DNA from: a virus
Taxonomy: Duplodnaviria > Heunggongvirae > Uroviricota > Caudoviricetes
DNA: 7,233 nucleotides
Reading direction: 5' to 3' (one strand)
Virus record (IMG/VR): IMGVR_UViG_2531839030_000007
A program made the translations under genes and the position numbers. Positions 1 to 7,161 of the stretch are shown here, one piece after another (position 1 is the first letter of the stretch; the number at the start of each line of letters is the position of its first letter). The notes beneath the pieces were generated by a model. It was not told the DNA's origin. It worked only from the letters and a program-made list of their open reading frames with translations, and made no database searches.

Positions 1-73
1 AACGTGTATTTTTAGTCATCCTGTTTACCTCTTTCTCAGGGAGTTTAGTCTCCAGGATTCCCGGGGCGGTTCA
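1..73 (-). mobile_element. Left end of an IS3-family insertion sequence (IS629/IS1203-like): terminal inverted repeat plus first codons of orfA; the element continues beyond the window start
   Basis: Read on the minus strand from position 73 the sequence is TGAACCGCCCCGGGAATCCTGGAGACTAAAC..., a TG-initiated terminal repeat I recognise as IS629-group. It is followed by an AGAGG Shine-Dalgarno and ATG at 19..17 opening ATG ACT AAA AAT ACA CGT (MTKNTR...), which matches the orfA N-terminus as I recall it. Tfa homology on the plus strand begins abruptly at about 74. Confidence 0.65.
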
Positions 74-189
74 ATCTGCTGGCCGGAACTAATGAATTTA
101 TTGGTGAAGGTGACGCATACATTCCGCCTCATACAGGTCTGCCAGCAAACAGTACCGATATTGCACCGCCAGATATTCCGGCTGGCTTC

Positions 190-606
190 GTGGCTGTTTT
201 CAACAGTAATGAGGCATCGTGGCATCTCGTTGAAGATCATCGGGGTAAAACGGTTTATGACGTGGCTTCCGGCGACGCGTTATTTATTTCTGAACTCGGT
301 CCGTTACCGGAAAATGTTACCTGGTTGTCGCCGGATGGAGAGTGTCAGAAGTGGAACGGCACATCCTGGGCGAAAGATGCAGAAGCAGAAAAACTGTTTC
401 GGGTACGGGAGGCAGAAGAAACAAAAAACAGCCTGATGCAGGTAGCCAGTGAGCATATTGCGCCACTTCAGGATGCCGTAGATTTGGATATTGCGACGGA
501 GGAAGAGGCATCGTTACTGGCTGCATGGAAGACATATCGGGTATTGTTGAATCGTGTTGATACAACAGTAGCAGCGGATGTTGAGTGGCCAGTCGCCCCA
601 CAATAA
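190..606 (+). CDS. tfa: Tail fibre assembly protein (Tfa family), 5'-truncated remnant; probably a pseudogene
   Basis: The translation (…[81 protein letters not shown]…VLLNRVD…) is near-identical to enterobacterial lambdoid/P2-type Tfa proteins as I recall them. The frame is open from 49 but has no ATG/GTG/TTG before the GTG at 190. The canonical Tfa N-terminus (about 16 residues, MAFRMSEQPRTIKIY in E. coli homologues) is not encoded; IS sequence takes its place. Stop is TAA at 604..606. Confidence 0.85.
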
Positions 607-613
607 AAAGAAA

Positions 614-641
614 AAGCCATCGACAGAAATATCGATGGCTT
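614..641. terminator. Bidirectional rho-independent terminator between the convergent tfa and acetyltransferase genes
   Basis: Perfect 10-bp inverted repeat AAGCCATCGA (614..623) / TCGATGGCTT (632..641) with an 8-nt loop. On the minus strand it is followed by TTTTTCTTTTTA, on the plus strand by TTATGTACTCTATTT. It lies 8 nt after the tfa stop and 9 nt after the minus-strand gene stop (650..652). Confidence 0.6.
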
Positions 642-649
642 TATGTACT

Positions 650-1222
650 CTATTTATACAATACAACACCACTCTTTTTAGTTATATATGTGCAGTTTGA
701 TGGTATATCTTTATTTATAAAAGACATTGCACCTATTTTTACATTATCCCCAATTTTACGTGATAATCCAATGATGCAACAATTAGCTCCGATATCAACG
801 TTACTACCAATTTTTACTCTTGAACTAGGCATATCACCATCTATCTGTCCAATGGTAGTATTCTGTCGTAATACCAGATTTTCACCCGCATCAACAGCAA
901 AATGAACAACAATTCCAGCATGATGGGGAATTGTCAACCCTTTTCCAATATTTGCGCCCAATCCTATTTCACAACCAAACTTGTTAATTATTTTACTGTT
1001 TAACTTTTTGGCTGCTTTCTTATGTAATTTATTACCATTAATATACATTTCGTTAGCCAACCGCCACCAGAAAAGGAAATTCCGGTTACGCTGCTTTTTC
1101 TCTCTTAAAAGCCTCCAGATATCCATACGTTTCCGCCGAATTACTTCATGTTTCCAGAAGTTTTTTAAATTAGTAGAGTTTCCAAATAAAACAAAGTGAA
1201 TTGCCATTAAGTAAGATAGCAC
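650..1222 (-). CDS. Hexapeptide-repeat (left-handed beta-helix) acetyltransferase, WcaB/CysE-like; AT-rich cargo gene
   Basis: The ORF is open 650..1255. Its translation carries the serine/sugar O-acetyltransferase signature FGCEIGLGANIGKGLTIPHHAGIVVH…GENLVLRQNTTIG…VKIGSNVDIGANCCIIG…IGDNVKIGAMSFINKDIP, preceded by an FWWRLA helical segment. Start is uncertain: GTG at 1222..1220 has AAGGAG 6 nt upstream (preferred); alternatives are GTG at 1255 and ATG at 1207. Hand counts of 60-nt blocks give about 25-32% G+C here against about 53% in a tail-gene block. Confidence 0.8.
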   Translation of the reverse strand: MLSYLMAIHFVLFGNSTNLKNFWKHEVIRRKRMDIWRLLREKKQRNRNFLFWWRLANEMYINGNKLHKKAAKKLNSKIINKFGCEIGLGANIGKGLTIPHHAGIVVHFAVDAGENLVLRQNTTIGQIDGDMPSSRVKIGSNVDIGANCCIIGLSRKIGDNVKIGAMSFINKDIPSNCTYITKKSGVVLYK

Positions 1223-1273
1223 GATAATCTCCTTAATTATTATTTCAGACCACACATGTTATAAGGTTAAGAG

Positions 1274-1302
1274 ATTATAAAATCCTGTTATTTGTTATTC
1301 AA
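1274..1302 (-). promoter_or_regulatory. Sigma70-type promoter for the acetyltransferase gene
   Basis: On the minus strand: -35 TTGAAT (1302..1297), a 17-bp spacer, and a perfect -10 TATAAT (1279..1274). There is an A/T-rich tract upstream of the -35. The predicted transcription start near 1267 lies upstream of the AAGGAG Shine-Dalgarno at 1234..1229. Confidence 0.45.
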
Positions 1303-1378
1303 AAACAATTTTCTGAGAAGGACATACAACAGCAAGTCGCCAGTCACCTTCATCAGGAAATTGGCGACATACGTTAAA

Positions 1379-1873
1379 TCAGAGCAGCCCCTTAACTGAG
1401 CTGGCCGCGCTATTAAGGGATGATGTCACCTTATCTTTGAAGCCGGACAGCATATCGCTGAACGATGAGGATTGCAGGCGCTCCCGCAAATCCTCATCAC
1501 AGCGTTCAAGAGTCAGTGAAAATTCTATCTTTTTCGCCTTACCGTAGCGATCAAACTCGGAGCGGGTCGTATTCGTTCCGGTCAGGACATACATGCCGTA
1601 AATCTGCCCGACGCCATCAATCAAAGGCCAAGGACGTCCTGTATATGCCTGCGTGGTCAACAACGACAGCGACACTTCGCCACCAGTAATCTCAGGATAA
1701 AGAACACCAGAAAGAACGATGCGATCATCACCTGCACCGATATACTGCCAGCTTGCTGAACGGTTAACGCGTTCATTTTTCACATGTCGCCAGCTTTTGT
1801 TTTGCTGTAACTGCTGATGCGGCAACGTGCGCAGCTCAAAAACAAACATGCCGTAGATCATCATCATGGCCAT
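1379..1873 (-). CDS. U: P2 gpU-like tail protein
   Basis: The translation shares blocks with P2 gpU as recalled (LSGVLYPEITGG, WPLIDGVGQIYGMYV, KIEFSLTLERCDE). GAGGAG lies just upstream of the ATG cluster at 1873..1861, and the upstream tape-measure fragment ends at 1880..1882. Stop is TGA at 1379..1381. Confidence 0.88.
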   Translation of the reverse strand: MAMMMIYGMFVFELRTLPHQQLQQNKSWRHVKNERVNRSASWQYIGAGDDRIVLSGVLYPEITGGEVSLSLLTTQAYTGRPWPLIDGVGQIYGMYVLTGTNTTRSEFDRYGKAKKIEFSLTLERCDEDLRERLQSSSFSDMLSGFKDKVTSSLNSAASSVKGLL

Positions 1874-1879
1874 GACTCC

Positions 1880-2716
1880 TCAATCTTTATCGTAAAAACT
1901 GCCACGCCTGGCACGGGCGCGCCGTTCCATTTCTGCCCTGACCATTTCGCCGACCAGTTTCGCCAGTTCGCGGGGATTCTGCGTAACAACGTTATGCAGA
2001 TGAACATGAATTTCACCGCCAAATCCGGAGGCAACAGGCTCCCGGTTACGGGAAGTTGCAGGAACTGATGCCACTGGCGATCGTATGGCCTCCACCACCG
2101 GGCGGGAGCTGGCCGCAACAACAGGGACCAGCGCCGGAGGCAGCGGAGCCGGGACCACGGGTGTGATATTAATTGCGGGGGCAGGCTTACTGACCTGCGC
2201 AATCTTCCGCTCCTGCCACTCCCCACGAACAGCAAGTGCGCGGGGCAGGTTCTTAAAGACAATATCGCCGGGGCCAATGCGTTTTTTTGTCTCATCAACC
2301 AGCTTACCTGTGTTATCAGCAATTTTGCTGAGTCTGCGTAGCGTGCCGGTATTGCTGTCTGTGAGAGGTTTGTTGTCTTTGGGTTTATCATCTCCGGTGC
2401 CATTGCTATTTCCCGCAGACTTCGGCGGATTGATTTTCGCAATGTCTCCCTGAAACAGAGCAACCTTGTCCTGAAGAATGGCCGCACGTTGTGCGTCTTC
2501 GATTTTCTTGCGCGCCCTTTCCGCTTCATCCGGAAGCACACCGAGTTTTTCAAGTATCCACGCCAGCGTATCCAGCAACATTTTTGCAGGCGTCAGAACA
2601 AGCTGTAACGCACCACCAAGAACGTTACCGAATACCTCGCCAGCACTGGTACATTTATCCAGCGTTTCCTTGCTGGACTCCATCGGTGACAGCAGCGATT
2701 TAAACCAGTTAAACAC
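1880..2716 (-). CDS. T: Tail tape measure protein, C-terminal portion, out of frame with the N-terminal portion (frameshifted gene or pseudogene)
   Basis: A 278-codon ORF that overlaps the 3' end of the 708-codon tape-measure ORF in a different frame. It sits directly between the tape measure and gpU, as the tape-measure C-terminus does in P2. Its frame opens just after a TGA within the overlap. Confidence 0.75.
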   Translation of the reverse strand: MFNWFKSLLSPMESSKETLDKCTSAGEVFGNVLGGALQLVLTPAKMLLDTLAWILEKLGVLPDEAERARKKIEDAQRAAILQDKVALFQGDIAKINPPKSAGNSNGTGDDKPKDNKPLTDSNTGTLRRLSKIADNTGKLVDETKKRIGPGDIVFKNLPRALAVRGEWQERKIAQVSKPAPAINITPVVPAPLPPALVPVVAASSRPVVEAIRSPVASVPATSRNREPVASGFGGEIHVHLHNVVTQNPRELAKLVGEMVRAEMERRARARRGSFYDKD

Positions 2717-4719
2717 CTGGCTGAACCGCTTCCGATTACGTCAAAAACAGGGCCAAACCGTTCAAAGGTGTCGCGCAACGGGGTCAGCCTTTCCATAATC
2801 CCGCTGAACACCCCGGCAAAGAAAGCCCTGATAGGATCCCAGTATTTCCAGATAAGAACGGCAGCTCCGGCAAGCGCAGCCACGATAAGACCAACCGGAC
2901 TGAACAACGCCCCGATAACGCCTCCCAGTAAAGAAACGGAACCCGTCACCATTCCCCATAGCGCAGGTAACACCCTGACGACATTCATTGACCGGGTAAG
3001 AATGTCAAAACCAAGACGCAGGGTGGCCAGCTTCCCGTAAAGCACCCCAATAACCAGCGACAACGAGCCAATCGTTGCAGTCATTGCCAGCAACGCACCG
3101 CCTGCTATCAGTAGCTGGCGCGTCAGTACCGGATGGGCCTGCGCCAGCGAGGTGATTTTTTCAAGCACCCGCGTGAGCCACTGCGTGACAGAACGCAGCG
3201 GACCGTCAACCAGATCACTGATGCGAATACGAAGACCTTCCCATGCGCTGTCGAGATTTTTCAGGTCCCCATCAAGATTATCAGCCATTACTTTTGCGAC
3301 GCGATCGGCCTCTCCCCTTGCCCCCTGCAATTCTCTGGTCAGTTTTTGCAGCTCTCCTGAACCAGCCGCCGCAACAAGCGTCTGCAAACCAACGAACGCC
3401 TCTTCTCCGGCGATGTCCTTGAAGAAGGAGACCTGGTCCACCTGTCCGTATTTTTGTGTCGCCTTATAGAGATCAAGCAGCACATCCTCCATCGGGCGCA
3501 TTTTGCCTCTGGCGTCAGCAACTGACACCCCCAGCTCTTTCAGTGCATCAGCCGCAGCTTTTGGCGGTGATGCAAGGCGGGACAGACTTGCGCGCATGGC
3601 CGTGCCAGCATCGCTTCCGCGAAGACCATTATTGGCAAGCATCCCGGCCATGGCCGCCGCTTCTTCAAGACTGATACCAAGTTTTGCGGCAACCGGACCG
3701 GTATACTTCATGGTTTCGCCCAGCGCGCGTAAATCAGTATTGGTCCGGGTAAATGCTGCTGTCAGCGTATCGCCCACCCGGTCCATTTGATCGGCTGTCA
3801 GGTTGAACTGTGTGAGGATATTGGAGCCTATATCAGCCGTCTCGCCGAGTTCGACGCCACCTGCCAGCGCCATATTAAGAACACCGGGCAATGCGGCCTG
3901 AATGGCCTGCGGAGTAAAACCAGCCATTGCCAGAAAGCTCTGCCCACTGGCGGCATCACTCGCAGTAAACTGTGTTTCAGCAAGTTTTAACGCCTGCTCA
4001 CGCAGCGCCTTAAACTGCGGGCTGTTTTTGTCGATTCGCGTCAGTGCCTGAACGCGGGACATCTCTTTGCCGAACCCGATCGCAGGCTGCAAAAAACGCC
4101 CGGCAGCATAGCCGCCCGCCGCTGCCGCACCAATTGCCAGCGCACCACCTGTTTTCAGTTTTCCCGCGGTTTCCTGCGCGTGCGAATACCGCTCACGCGC
4201 CTGCGTTACACGCGCAAGCGCCTGCCGTTCGCGTTCAAGCTGGTTGTTGTATTGTTCGGTGCGTCTGATGGCCTGCTGAATGGTGTTATCGCTGCCTGTC
4301 AGGGAAATGCCGTGGCGTTTCAGCTCTCCGCCAAGTTCCCTCATTTTCTGAATTTCCCGTGTGCGCGATTCATTCAGGCGTTCAAGCCGGGTGCTTAACT
4401 GCTGCATCAGCTTTTGTTGTTTTTCGCTGAGCACTGTACCCGTGCGTTGTAACTGATTAAGGGCGTTAAGCTGGCGTCGTGCTTTCACGATGCCAGCATC
4501 CGCTTTACTGACAGCGTCGCGGGCGCGCTCAAATGATCGCGCCTGACGCTCGAGATTTTTGATCGCCCCCTGCGTTCGCTGGATGGAGTCACCAAACTGC
4601 CCCATCAGGCGGCGTGCGTTTTCGGCAGGTCGGGTCAGCCTGTCAACGGCGCTGAAAGCGACCCGGATATCAAGAGTCTTCATTGTCTGCATTCCCGCTG
4701 CGAAGTGCCGCCCGCTCAC
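2593..4719 (-). CDS. T: Tail tape measure protein, N-terminal portion (P2 gpT-like)
   Basis: A 708-codon ORF with coiled-coil-like Ala/Gln/Arg/Leu-rich segments and C-terminal hydrophobic Gly/Ala-rich stretches typical of tape measures, located between E/E' and gpU. The last roughly 45 residues (…GSGSARCLTGLNRCCHRWSP…) look out of frame. The true start is probably ATG at 4692 or 4683, overlapping the E' stop at 4670..4672, rather than GTG at 4719. Confidence 0.88.
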   Translation of the reverse strand: MSGRHFAAGMQTMKTLDIRVAFSAVDRLTRPAENARRLMGQFGDSIQRTQGAIKNLERQARSFERARDAVSKADAGIVKARRQLNALNQLQRTGTVLSEKQQKLMQQLSTRLERLNESRTREIQKMRELGGELKRHGISLTGSDNTIQQAIRRTEQYNNQLERERQALARVTQARERYSHAQETAGKLKTGGALAIGAAAAGGYAAGRFLQPAIGFGKEMSRVQALTRIDKNSPQFKALREQALKLAETQFTASDAASGQSFLAMAGFTPQAIQAALPGVLNMALAGGVELGETADIGSNILTQFNLTADQMDRVGDTLTAAFTRTNTDLRALGETMKYTGPVAAKLGISLEEAAAMAGMLANNGLRGSDAGTAMRASLSRLASPPKAAADALKELGVSVADARGKMRPMEDVLLDLYKATQKYGQVDQVSFFKDIAGEEAFVGLQTLVAAAGSGELQKLTRELQGARGEADRVAKVMADNLDGDLKNLDSAWEGLRIRISDLVDGPLRSVTQWLTRVLEKITSLAQAHPVLTRQLLIAGGALLAMTATIGSLSLVIGVLYGKLATLRLGFDILTRSMNVVRVLPALWGMVTGSVSLLGGVIGALFSPVGLIVAALAGAAVLIWKYWDPIRAFFAGVFSGIMERLTPLRDTFERFGPVFDVIGSGSARCLTGLNRCCHRWSPARKRWINVPVLARYSVTFLVVRYSLF

Positions 4720-5199
4720 GCCAGCTAACCACTTCGCCGGGCGTCATCATGAAGATTTCGGCGGGCGACCAGTTAAAAATAACGGCAATATCTGCCACAA
4801 AGTCTTCTATGTGCTCAAAGCACACAACCGTGATCAGGCTTCCGTCGCCTGTTCGTTCTTCCCGCCAGAGTCCGCACCGCTCAAAAAATTTACGGCAACC
4901 ACACATAACTGAATAAAGTCACGGGATGCCATTTTTTTGATCGTCACTTCATCCAGTCGCGGTGATGTCACGCGTGACAGCAGCGTAAACATGGATTCCG
5001 CTTTCAGATTCAGCACATCAGACAGCGACAAATCTCGCAGAGATCCAGCCTGCTCAATAGCCCCGGTGATCTCCACATACGTGATTTTTTCGCCGCCTCG
5101 CTCAATTGGTTGGGTAAGTTTTACACCACGCTCACTGGTTTCTTTCACAGTGTCAGTAACTACCGTGTTTTCGGTATCGATGTTTTTCGTCTCTTTCAT
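4670..5199 (-). CDS. Tail assembly chaperone E+E' fusion, made by programmed -1 ribosomal frameshift (P2 gpE+E'-like)
   Basis: The E frame (5199..4882) joins the -1 frame (4882..4670) at the slippery heptamer T_TTT_TTG. The -1 frame encodes …SPAEIFMMTPGEVVSWRER…, and the predicted fusion is about 176 aa. The arrangement of E, E' and T matches the P2 FETUD operon. Confidence 0.7.
4834..5199 (-). CDS. E: Tail assembly chaperone E (P2 gpE-like)
   Basis: A 121-codon ORF containing PIERGGEKITYVEI. AGGAG lies 8 nt upstream of the ATG at 5199..5197. It sits between the tube and tape-measure genes. Confidence 0.85.
   Translation of the reverse strand: MKETKNIDTENTVVTDTVKETSERGVKLTQPIERGGEKITYVEITGAIEQAGSLRDLSLSDVLNLKAESMFTLLSRVTSPRLDEVTIKKMASRDFIQLCVVAVNFLSGADSGGKNEQATEA
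4882..4888 (-). other. Programmed -1 frameshift slippery heptamer T_TTT_TTG for E/E'
   Basis: The minus strand reads AAT TTT TTG in the E frame (codons N104-F105-L106). The -1 frame is open from this point to 4670, and the E frame terminates 15 codons later at 4834..4836. Confidence 0.7.
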
Positions 5200-5253
5200 C
5201 AGGAAACTCCTTTCAGTCAGAGGCGACGCACTGCGCCGCCTGCATATTACTTA

Positions 5254-5766
5254 TCAGCCAAGCCCAAGCGCGGAACGGATGCGATCGGGCACAATGTCCT
5301 TGCCGTCCTTCCGGTAAATGAAGTTCAGCAGGTCAATCTCCCACAACGGGCGATCGTTAACACTCAGCTTGTAGTAGGTGTTTTTAATGGCGTAAGTGTG
5401 TGATGTGGCTTCGCCCTGTTTGGCTTCCCCCATATCAATTTCCGTCACACGTCCGCGCATTTCGACTTCATACAGGTCGCTTTCATCATCGGTGTAGTAT
5501 TCCCCCGCAAAACGCAGTAGCGTGCCGTCAATCGTGCCGCCATACTTCAGGAACAGCTCACGAACTGCGCCCCCCATGACAAAGCTCGCATCAAGCGCGG
5601 AGTCGTCCAGGCCGAGGTCAATACTTACCGCACCCATCATGCCACCACCCCGGTAGCTGTCGGTTTTGCGCGTCAGTTTAGGCAGGGTGACGGACGTCAC
5701 CTTACCCACTTCGTTTTCACCATCCACAAACAGCGTAAAAAAGCGAAGATGTTTTGGTACAGCCAT
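5254..5766 (-). CDS. FII: Tail tube protein (P2 gpFII-like)
   Basis: The translation contains VTLPKLTRK…YRGGGM…DLGLDD…LRFAGEY…EVEMRGR, matching P2 FII blocks as recalled. GGGAGG lies upstream of the ATG at 5766..5764, which overlaps the FI stop as TGATG. Confidence 0.93.
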   Translation of the reverse strand: MAVPKHLRFFTLFVDGENEVGKVTSVTLPKLTRKTDSYRGGGMMGAVSIDLGLDDSALDASFVMGGAVRELFLKYGGTIDGTLLRFAGEYYTDDESDLYEVEMRGRVTEIDMGEAKQGEATSHTYAIKNTYYKLSVNDRPLWEIDLLNFIYRKDGKDIVPDRIRSALGLG

Positions 5767-6950
5767 CAGGCACCTCCCAGCACCGCAAATGCGGGACCAA
5801 AGAATTCATCAGTAAACGACTGGTAAAGCTCCATGTCTTCCAGCGGAGGAACGGGCGTATATTTGTAGCGAATACGCACACGCCCCTGACGTAAATTCGT
5901 GGTGCTGTTATCCTCGATGTCATACCAGCACTCCGCGCCAATCAGTTTCCCGGCAGTAACCAGTGAATCCAGTTTTGCCCTGATGGCACTGATAACATCC
6001 TTCACGTTCGCAGGTGTCAGTGGACTGTCGATGGTTTCAAACTGCGCTTCCGCAATTGAATCAGCCAGCACCTGTGCGGTTCGGGTATACACCTCAAAGA
6101 TGTAGGCGTTCGTTTCCGGTGTGCGGTTGCCCCAGAAGCGGAACCCGTTGCGACGAATAATGGTCGTGATTTCTTTGTTGTTGAGGCTGTTGGCATCACT
6201 GTCTTCGGCCTGCAACGACCAGAACACATGCCTCGACATCCCAAGCACATTTTTAACCGGAACGTTGGACAGCGATTTGTGCCAGCCCTGCTCATGGTCA
6301 ATGTACGCACGAAGGCCGCACGCATAAGCAGGCGCGGGGAACGTTTCGTTTTTGCCACTTTTCAGGTTGTAGGCGATGAAGTCAGGCCATAAGAGCATCA
6401 CCTCACGTTCGTTGAATTTCTGGCGGTAGGTAATCGCCTCAGCCATCGTGTTACAACCATGACATGTGGCATACACAAACGCGCGCAGTTTACCCGCAAT
6501 CACGCACAGGGATTTTGTTACCGCCTCCGTGTCCAGCTCCGGCGCGGCCAGAATACGCGGACGGTATCCGATGCTTTCATCCTGCTCTGCAACAAGCAGC
6601 GCATACATCCCCGTATAGCTGCCGTCAGATTCAGAACCACCGATAACCAGTTGATCCTGCGTCTTACCGCCTTCTTCTTTGTGTTCAGCCACGCGAACGA
6701 CGATCACTTTTGTGCTCACCTGGTCTGCGATAGCCTTAAGCGCACGATAAAGCGTCCCCGTAGTCCCGCATTTTCCCAGCACGTCATTGACGCGGGTCAG
6801 CAGTGTGGGCTTGTTCAGCGGGAACAGCTCCGCGTCCGCATCATCTGCCGTTGCCACGATACCGATAACACTGGAATCAACATCATTAATCGCTGTTACC
6901 AGGTCGGTACTTTCCGTAACACGGGCACCATGAAAACGAGTTTCACTCAT
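5766..6950 (-). CDS. FI: Contractile tail sheath protein (P2 gpFI-like)
   Basis: The 394-aa translation carries P2 FI blocks (ADDADAELFPLNKP, KLRAFVYA, WPDF, EQGWHKSLSNV, RRNGFRFWGNRT, YKYTPVPPLE). AAGGGG lies 9 nt upstream of the ATG at 6950..6948. Confidence 0.95.
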   Translation of the reverse strand: MSETRFHGARVTESTDLVTAINDVDSSVIGIVATADDADAELFPLNKPTLLTRVNDVLGKCGTTGTLYRALKAIADQVSTKVIVVRVAEHKEEGGKTQDQLVIGGSESDGSYTGMYALLVAEQDESIGYRPRILAAPELDTEAVTKSLCVIAGKLRAFVYATCHGCNTMAEAITYRQKFNEREVMLLWPDFIAYNLKSGKNETFPAPAYACGLRAYIDHEQGWHKSLSNVPVKNVLGMSRHVFWSLQAEDSDANSLNNKEITTIIRRNGFRFWGNRTPETNAYIFEVYTRTAQVLADSIAEAQFETIDSPLTPANVKDVISAIRAKLDSLVTAGKLIGAECWYDIEDNSTTNLRQGRVRIRYKYTPVPPLEDMELYQSFTDEFFGPAFAVLGGA

Positions 6951-7161
6951 AGCTTCAGCCCCTTGTATCCGTTAAATGATTCGGCAACAATCATCACCCA
7001 CCACGCGCGTAATCTCACCCCTGCGCCGTTCTCCCGCCACGGCGACAACAAAAAGCAGTAACCCCCTCCGCACGCACATGCGACCATGCCGCACAGGGAG
7101 GGAACAGATGACCGACACCACCATGCAATTGCTCAGTCAGGGCACAGACCACGTGAAAGTT

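Follow-up and report, generated by a model that had tools for sequence, protein, structure and literature searches.

The window analyzed here is the whole stretch of 7,233 nucleotides, and its positions 1..7160 are 100% identical to the corresponding DNA of E. coli O157:H7 Sakai (prophage Sp13) and EDL933. The region of the tail tape measure protein (TMP) gene is also 100% identical to many E. coli O157:H7 chromosomes. Sp13 is presumably the prophage that is also called CP-933T. In Sakai, the TMP gene is the annotated pseudogene ECs_2640 (2804 nt, NC_002695.2 2606612..2609415), located within "prophage Sp13, P2-like phage". The equivalent gene of EDL933, EDL933_RS14220, is named by PGAP as "phage tail tape measure protein, frameshifted". 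The pseudogene status of this TMP gene is already known from these RefSeq annotations of Sakai and EDL933. The features of the locus are listed below in the direction of the minus strand.

5766..6950, minus strand: sheath gene, in annotated order
5254..5766, minus strand: tube gene, in annotated order
4834..5199, minus strand: E homologue, in annotated order
4670..4825 as annotated, minus strand: E' gene (GpE-family), in annotated order
2593..4719, minus strand: upstream ORF of 708 codons from the program-made ORF list
1880..4683, minus strand: whole TMP pseudogene (gene T), 2804 nt, against 2808 nt in intact orthologues
2725..4683, minus strand: native-frame part of the TMP, codons 1-653, ending in ...VIGSG and carrying PF10145 PhageMin_Tail
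3979..3982, minus strand: second derived indel in the TMP gene, an in-frame 3-nt deletion near plus 3981
2723..2727, minus strand: lesion, GGTTC against GGGATC in intact relatives
2593..2724, minus strand: out-of-frame end of the upstream ORF, with 43 missense codons (SARCLTGLNRCC...SLF) and the TGA stop at 2593..2595
1880..2722, minus strand: last 280 TMP codons, now in the -1 frame (SQVFNWFKSLL...FYDKD and then a stop); PHROG 17114 positions 108-388
1880..2716, minus strand: downstream ORF of 278 codons from the same ORF list
2698..2704, minus strand: heptamer T TTA AAT, whose X XXY YYZ register in the shifted frame is set by the lesion
1379..1867, minus strand: U (tail protein) gene, in annotated order after T

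Beyond U lies a low-GC acetyltransferase gene, followed on the plus strand by a gene for tail fibre assembly. Lying between the frameshifting chaperone pair E/E' and gpU, the TMP gene has a position that fits a contractile-tail operon.

The 708- and 278-codon ORFs lie in different frames of the minus strand and have 124 nt in common (2593..2716), as the initial annotation had described and as the ORF list confirms. The minus-strand letters around the frame break are ...TTTGACGTAATCGGAAGCGGTTCAGCCAGGTGTTTAAC..., and the same site is also given as ...TTTGACGTAATCGGAAGCGGTTCAGCCAGGTGTTTAACTGG.... In a three-frame translation, the homologous protein runs as ...FERFGPVFDVIGSG in one frame and continues as SQVFNWFKSLLSPMESS... 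in the -1 frame. The profile search divided PHROG 17114 at the junction, with positions 1-111 on the upstream piece and positions 108-388 on the downstream piece. PHROG 28 (tail length tape measure protein) matched the upstream ORF over positions 107-701 (E=1.2e-206) and the downstream ORF over positions 684-772. The Pfam domain PF10145 PhageMin_Tail was found in the upstream piece at residues 228-426 (E=7.6e-55, 186 bits against a cut-off of 33.2). Because both ORFs match tape measure profiles colinearly, a chance pair is ruled out, and the two ORFs are colinear pieces of one TMP.

The start of the TMP was taken as ATG 4683, which is used by all annotated homologues at the equivalent position. 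GTG 4719, which opens the 708-codon ORF and would give a repaired protein of ~946 aa, was rejected as the start, since the annotated homologues all begin at the equivalent of ATG 4683. One continuous full-length ORF, which is about 935 aa in this subfamily, is absent from the window, and the frame breaks after codon 653. With this break, and with a length of 2804 nt against 2808 nt, the Sp13 gene reads as a pseudogene of the TMP family rather than a functional member.

The lesion was defined by alignment with intact 2808-nt single-ORF homologues, including those of phages 500465-2 and P88, O103:H2 FWSEC0007, and FDAARGOS_1370. The ancestral minus strand reads AGC GGG ATC AGC CAG GTG (S G I S Q V), and the window reads AGC GGT TCA GCC AGG TG. 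One G is gone from GGG, beside plus 2727/2728, and an A-to-T substitution is present at plus 2725. GGGATC was found in 5/5 of the intact homologues aligned base by base, and also in the 3 earlier-branching relatives of O157:H7. The site at plus 2723..2727 named in the initial annotation was therefore right according to this alignment. The change proposed there was a different one, the loss of one T from GGTTTC; no homologue has GGTTTC, all have GGGATC (Gly-Ile), and the actual change is from GGGATC to GGTTC. The base loss and the A-to-T change lie three alignment columns apart and could be a single complex event, in which GA was replaced by T, or two separate steps. The alignment shows exactly two indels between the TMP gene of the window and the intact homologues. 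The other one, the 3-nt deletion, changed AAA CTT GGC TCT GAA into AAA CTT GCT GAA and replaced Gly-Ser with Ala.

When one base is inserted at the lesion, a protein of 934 aa with zero internal stops is obtained, and it is 97.3% identical to the O103:H2 TMP over the full length. The identity to this O103 protein is 98.2% before the lesion (residues 1-653) and 95.4% after it. The colinear profile matches and this one-base repair bear out the initial reading that a frameshift divides a single tape measure gene. A single base does restore a continuous protein, as had been anticipated; its length from ATG 4683 is 934 aa and not the expected 945 or so. Translation of the unrepaired gene from ATG 4683 gives 653 native codons followed by 43 wrong codons. 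The resulting product of 696 aa ends at the stop at 2593..2595, and the C-terminal 281 residues are missing.

The distribution of the frameshift allele was determined by searching 5,426 complete E. coli genomes with a 151-nt query that spans the lesion. The allele was matched at 99% identity or more by 264 records. All 12 records sampled from these were 100% identical over a span of 151 nt, and they came from O157:H7 or unlabelled strains. More than 1100 E. coli records carry a homologous segment, and every one of the other records sampled from them (48/48) has one extra base at this site; 43 of these 48 non-O157-type records cover the whole query with a span of 152 nt. A two-gene arrangement with the identical boundary, which by the initial annotation would have spoken against a frameshift, was found in no homologue. 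A second query of 202 nt, in which GGGATC was restored in the O157 background, was matched at 100% in LSU61, 493/89, PV15-279, and F3113, all labelled O157:H7, and at 99.5% in O55:H7 DEC5B. By these genome records, the frameshift is a real mutation that is carried by the typical O157:H7 genomes sampled.

The same prophage with an intact 2808-nt TMP gene is found in LSU61, 493/89, and O55:H7 DEC5B, where it also keeps the tail fibre, gpI, and baseplate J genes. LSU-61 has been described as presumably intermediate, standing between O55:H7 and two diverging branches (NSF O157:H7 and SF O157:NM), and 493-89 as an SF O157:NM strain (PMC7175801). The window shares 99.9% identity with LSU61 and 493/89 over 7.09 kb, against 99.5% with DEC5B. 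Just 2 substitutions and 2 indels separate it from 493/89 over this length. The changes that set the window apart from LSU61, 493/89, and DEC5B jointly amount to four events in 7.09 kb: a substitution in the sheath gene, the 3-nt deletion, the one-base deletion, and the neighbouring A-to-T. The sheath substitution is at plus 5914, where codon 346 is GAG in the window and the relatives have T at the middle position. Three of the four derived changes are in the TMP gene, a share that is not statistically significant. Since the near-identical ancestral prophage has an intact TMP gene in O55:H7 DEC5B, 493/89, and LSU61, the frameshift arose on the branch to typical non-sorbitol-fermenting O157:H7.

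Other breaks of the same gene were also found. In PV15-279 and F3113, the lesion site is ancestral, but the 5' part of the TMP gene is missing, as are sheath, tube, E, and E'. This truncation adjoins IS1203 and a partial IS30, and the two strains inactivated the TMP gene independently by IS1203/IS30 truncation. The typical O157:H7 strain 1613 has an extra IS1203 within the TMP gene. The phage record 520873 has two annotated TMP genes, which result from an unrelated 1-nt gap at alignment column 1135. None of the breaks in PV15-279, F3113, 1613, and phage 520873 is at the boundary seen in the window.

Sp13 is the sole P2-like prophage of Sakai (Asadulghani et al. 2009, PMC2669165). Most of its morphogenetic genes are missing, and its minor tail function was scored as defective (PMC2669165, Table 1). 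The element is ~21 kb in length and is located between yecA and the leuZ-cysT-glyW tRNA genes. An integrase, regulators, a gene for replication, and a partition pair of the ParM type are retained. The tail genes that flank T (sheath, tube, E, and U) are intact. No head, portal, terminase, lysis, baseplate, or fibre genes are present in the Sp13 annotation. The element is bounded on one side by an IS629/IS1203 fragment and on the other by a gpD fragment that IS30 truncates. This degraded P2-like prophage supports the initial proposal that a cryptic prophage carries a genuine inactivating mutation.

The right end of the window, at 7160/7161, runs into the interior of IS30 by a junction that is nearly absent from complete genomes. 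Compared with Sakai and EDL933, the strain of the window has a further ~0.9-kb deletion at the gpD fragment/IS30 end, and no difference in the TMP gene. This odd right end was considered as a sign of misassembly and rejected as such, as the complete genome of strain 93_161312 has the same deletion with one base different. Strain 93_161312 also carries the same frameshifted TMP gene.

An alternative that had been put forward for the frame break from the start is a sequencing or assembly error, in which case the true genome would be one base longer and the TMP gene would be intact. Single-base indels are a frequent assembly artefact, and the rare junction into IS30 casts a general doubt on the assembly. 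However, that junction recurs in the complete 93_161312 genome, the lesion is not in a long homopolymer, and the deletion is accompanied by a substitution. The allele is also present in Sakai, in two separate EDL933 assemblies, and in many independent isolates. Because 264 complete records match the allele and the allele follows the phylogeny, being present in typical O157:H7 and absent from the earlier-branching lineages, an error was rejected; its probability is close to nil. A functional split gene, in which a 696-aa N-terminal protein and a separate 278-aa C-terminal protein cooperate or have new roles, would agree with two long and undegraded ORFs, with the intact sheath, tube, E, and U genes adjoining them, and with the two annotated TMP genes of phage 520873. 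The break in phage 520873 is elsewhere, however, so the boundary is not conserved, and the undegraded look is due to a recent lesion, as seen from the few changes relative to 493/89. Inspection of the sequence upstream of GTG 2716 revealed no convincing ribosome binding site, that is, no good Shine-Dalgarno sequence at a suitable spacing. Separate expression of the C-terminal part is therefore unlikely, and a functional split is very improbable overall.

The two-frame layout could also be a programmed or tolerated -1 frameshift, in which ribosomes slipping within the 124-nt overlap, for instance at T TTA AAT, would still produce the full-length TMP. This canonical X XXY YYZ heptamer is in register, and it is the only slippery-type heptamer that a scan detected in the overlap, 21 nt downstream of the lesion. 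A -1 slip there would re-enter the native frame at ...FKSLLSPMES and leave ~10 altered residues, and a programmed -1 frameshift is already in use upstream in this operon, at E/E'. Against this, the two-frame layout is not conserved, as the sampled homologues outside typical O157:H7 have one continuous ORF. No slippery sequence was found at the lesion itself, and the 85 nt downstream of the heptamer fold no better than shuffled sequences (z = -1.2, with 20/200 shuffles as stable). We consider the heptamer coincidental because it is in register via the lesion alone, the fold is ordinary, and there are no baseplate, fibre, or head genes in the prophage with which a full-length TMP would be useful. 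A programmed frameshift is accordingly given very little probability. An equally slight chance is given to a leaky lesion, in which an occasional -1 slip at T TTA AAT would yield a little near-native TMP. An incoming P2-like phage, or some other element with a contractile tail, might then use this TMP in trans along with the products of the intact Sp13 genes sheath, tube, E/E', and U.

The frame break is almost certainly a pseudogenising mutation in gene T of the cryptic P2-like prophage Sp13, fixed in typical E. coli O157:H7. In the proposed sequence of events, a prophage with an intact T was inherited vertically through O55:H7, SF O157:NM, and LSU61. The codons AGC GGG ATC AGC (Ser-Gly-Ile-Ser) then became AGC GGT TCA GCC by the loss of one base and the adjacent A-to-T change. 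Ribosomes would leave the native frame after Gly653 and make the 696-aa product, and the C-terminal ORF would be stranded without a good start signal. In the lineage leading to typical O157:H7, the genes for baseplate, tail fibre, head, packaging, and lysis, beside the IS629 fragment, also disappeared. The truncated TMP is probably non-functional, and the mutation was probably fixed owing to relaxed selection on the TMP gene.

Only three points are new relative to the existing annotation: the ancestral sequence was exactly GGGATC, the gene has a second, in-frame deletion, and the lesion belongs on the typical O157:H7 branch. The Sp13 TMP should be treated as one pseudogene and not as two genes, and the finding has little importance beyond annotation. 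The lesion separates typical non-sorbitol-fermenting O157:H7 from LSU61, SF O157:NM, the PV15-279/F3113 group, and O55:H7, and it could act as a minor marker in the stepwise-evolution model. The locus is also a case of one prophage gene inactivated by different routes in sister sublineages.

Compared with known systems, ECs_2640 and EDL933_RS14220 are the same 2804-nt frameshifted TMP gene as that of the window, with no difference within the gene. The intact Peduoviridae TMPs WP_000853406/07/09 (LSU61, 493/89, and O55:H7 DEC5B), WP_000853415 (O103:H2), YP_009949284 (phage 500465-2), and YP_009113088 (phage P88) share with the window the PF10145 domain and the operon position in the order sheath, tube, E, E', T, U. 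After the one-base repair, the TMP of the window has 93-97% protein identity to the intact P2-like TMPs. The window differs from these in that they are single 2808-nt ORFs of 935 aa with GGGATC and with the extra Gly-Ser codon pair. In P2, gene T lies in the FETUD tail operon, where E and E+E' are reported to be produced by a programmed -1 frameshift (Christie et al. 2002, J Bacteriol). The gene order of this operon is common to P2 and the window. A slippery heptamer, T TTT TTG, occurs in the window at 4882..4888, close to where the E homologue ends; it is in register and leads into the E' frame. The programmed frameshift of P2 is in the chaperone gene upstream, whereas the frame change of the window is inside T, is unconserved, and lacks a slippery site, which makes it a mutation and not part of the E/E' mechanism.

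Two changes besides the frameshift set the window allele apart from its relatives. One lies in the tape measure gene, where 3 nt were deleted in frame at about 3979..3982 (minus strand), turning Gly-Ser into Ala. This deletion was not found in LSU61, 493/89, O55:H7 DEC5B, or any intact homologue examined. The other is a non-synonymous substitution at window position 5914, codon 346 of the sheath gene, where the window reads GAG (Glu) and the relatives carry T at the middle position. It is the sole change unique to the window allele outside the tape measure gene in the 7.09 kb compared, and it is consistent with the differing protein accessions WP_000005444 and WP_000005445.

The tape measure gene is also disrupted elsewhere. 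The O157:H7 strains PV15-279 and F3113 (L011 and L012, locus 3637..7938) carry the same prophage, but it no longer has sheath, tube, E, or E' genes, and its tape measure gene is missing the 5' end. This loss adjoins IS1203 and a partial IS30. Both strains still have the ancestral sequence at the lesion site, and their tape measure gene is inactivated by an independent route; an internal stop is also annotated in F3113. A one-base gap also divides the tape measure gene into two annotated CDS in the deposited record of phage 520873 (L004, 1568..4374). It lies at another site (alignment column 1135) and reflects either a frameshift of independent origin or an error in sequencing that record.

At the right end of the window, the final 74 bases (7160/7161 to 7233) are IS30 interior fused directly to the gpD fragment, a junction that corresponds to a deletion of about 903 bp compared with EDL933 and Sakai. 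Among 5,426 complete genomes, only that of strain 93_161312 from Japan shows a nearly identical junction, and the source strain therefore has a further rare deletion within Sp13. The IS30 insertion in gpD itself is present in the SF O157 strain 493/89 (L009, 1281..2706) and in typical O157:H7, and is absent in LSU61 and O55:H7 DEC5B. This distribution either helps to order the events of the stepwise model or indicates recurrent insertion.

The features at the left end and upstream of the tape measure gene are as follows.
76..606, plus strand: tail fibre assembly gene, 5' part missing
650..1222, minus strand: annotated serine O-acetyltransferase gene, flanked by gpU and the tail fibre assembly gene
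4670..5199, minus strand: E/E' region, containing the slippery heptamer at 4882..4888

LSU61 and 493/89 have a fuller prophage, and the homology between it and the window ends at window position 73, within 1..75 (plus strand); the tail fibre assembly gene therefore lacks its first 45 nt or so. The loss resulted from a deletion adjoining an IS629/IS1203 fragment. The internal starts chosen by the annotators differ, giving 531 nt in EDL933 and 417 nt in Sakai, while the intact gene is 579 nt.

Close to its end, the E homologue contains a slippery heptamer of the P2 type, T TTT TTG (4882..4888, minus strand), in register. A -1 slip at this site would lead into the E' frame, whose end is at 4670, and would produce the E+E' tail chaperone fusion, as expected. 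PGAP instead gives E' as a separate 51-aa 'GpE family' CDS (4670..4825) rather than the fusion, and the Sakai record has no annotation for E' at all.

The GC content of the serine O-acetyltransferase gene is 34%, compared with 50-56% in the adjacent tail genes, and the gene resembles a moron. Where the window has the acetyltransferase, phages P88 and 500465-2 carry a DNA invertase, whereas the O103 and O55:H7 prophages carry the acetyltransferase at that position, as the window does.
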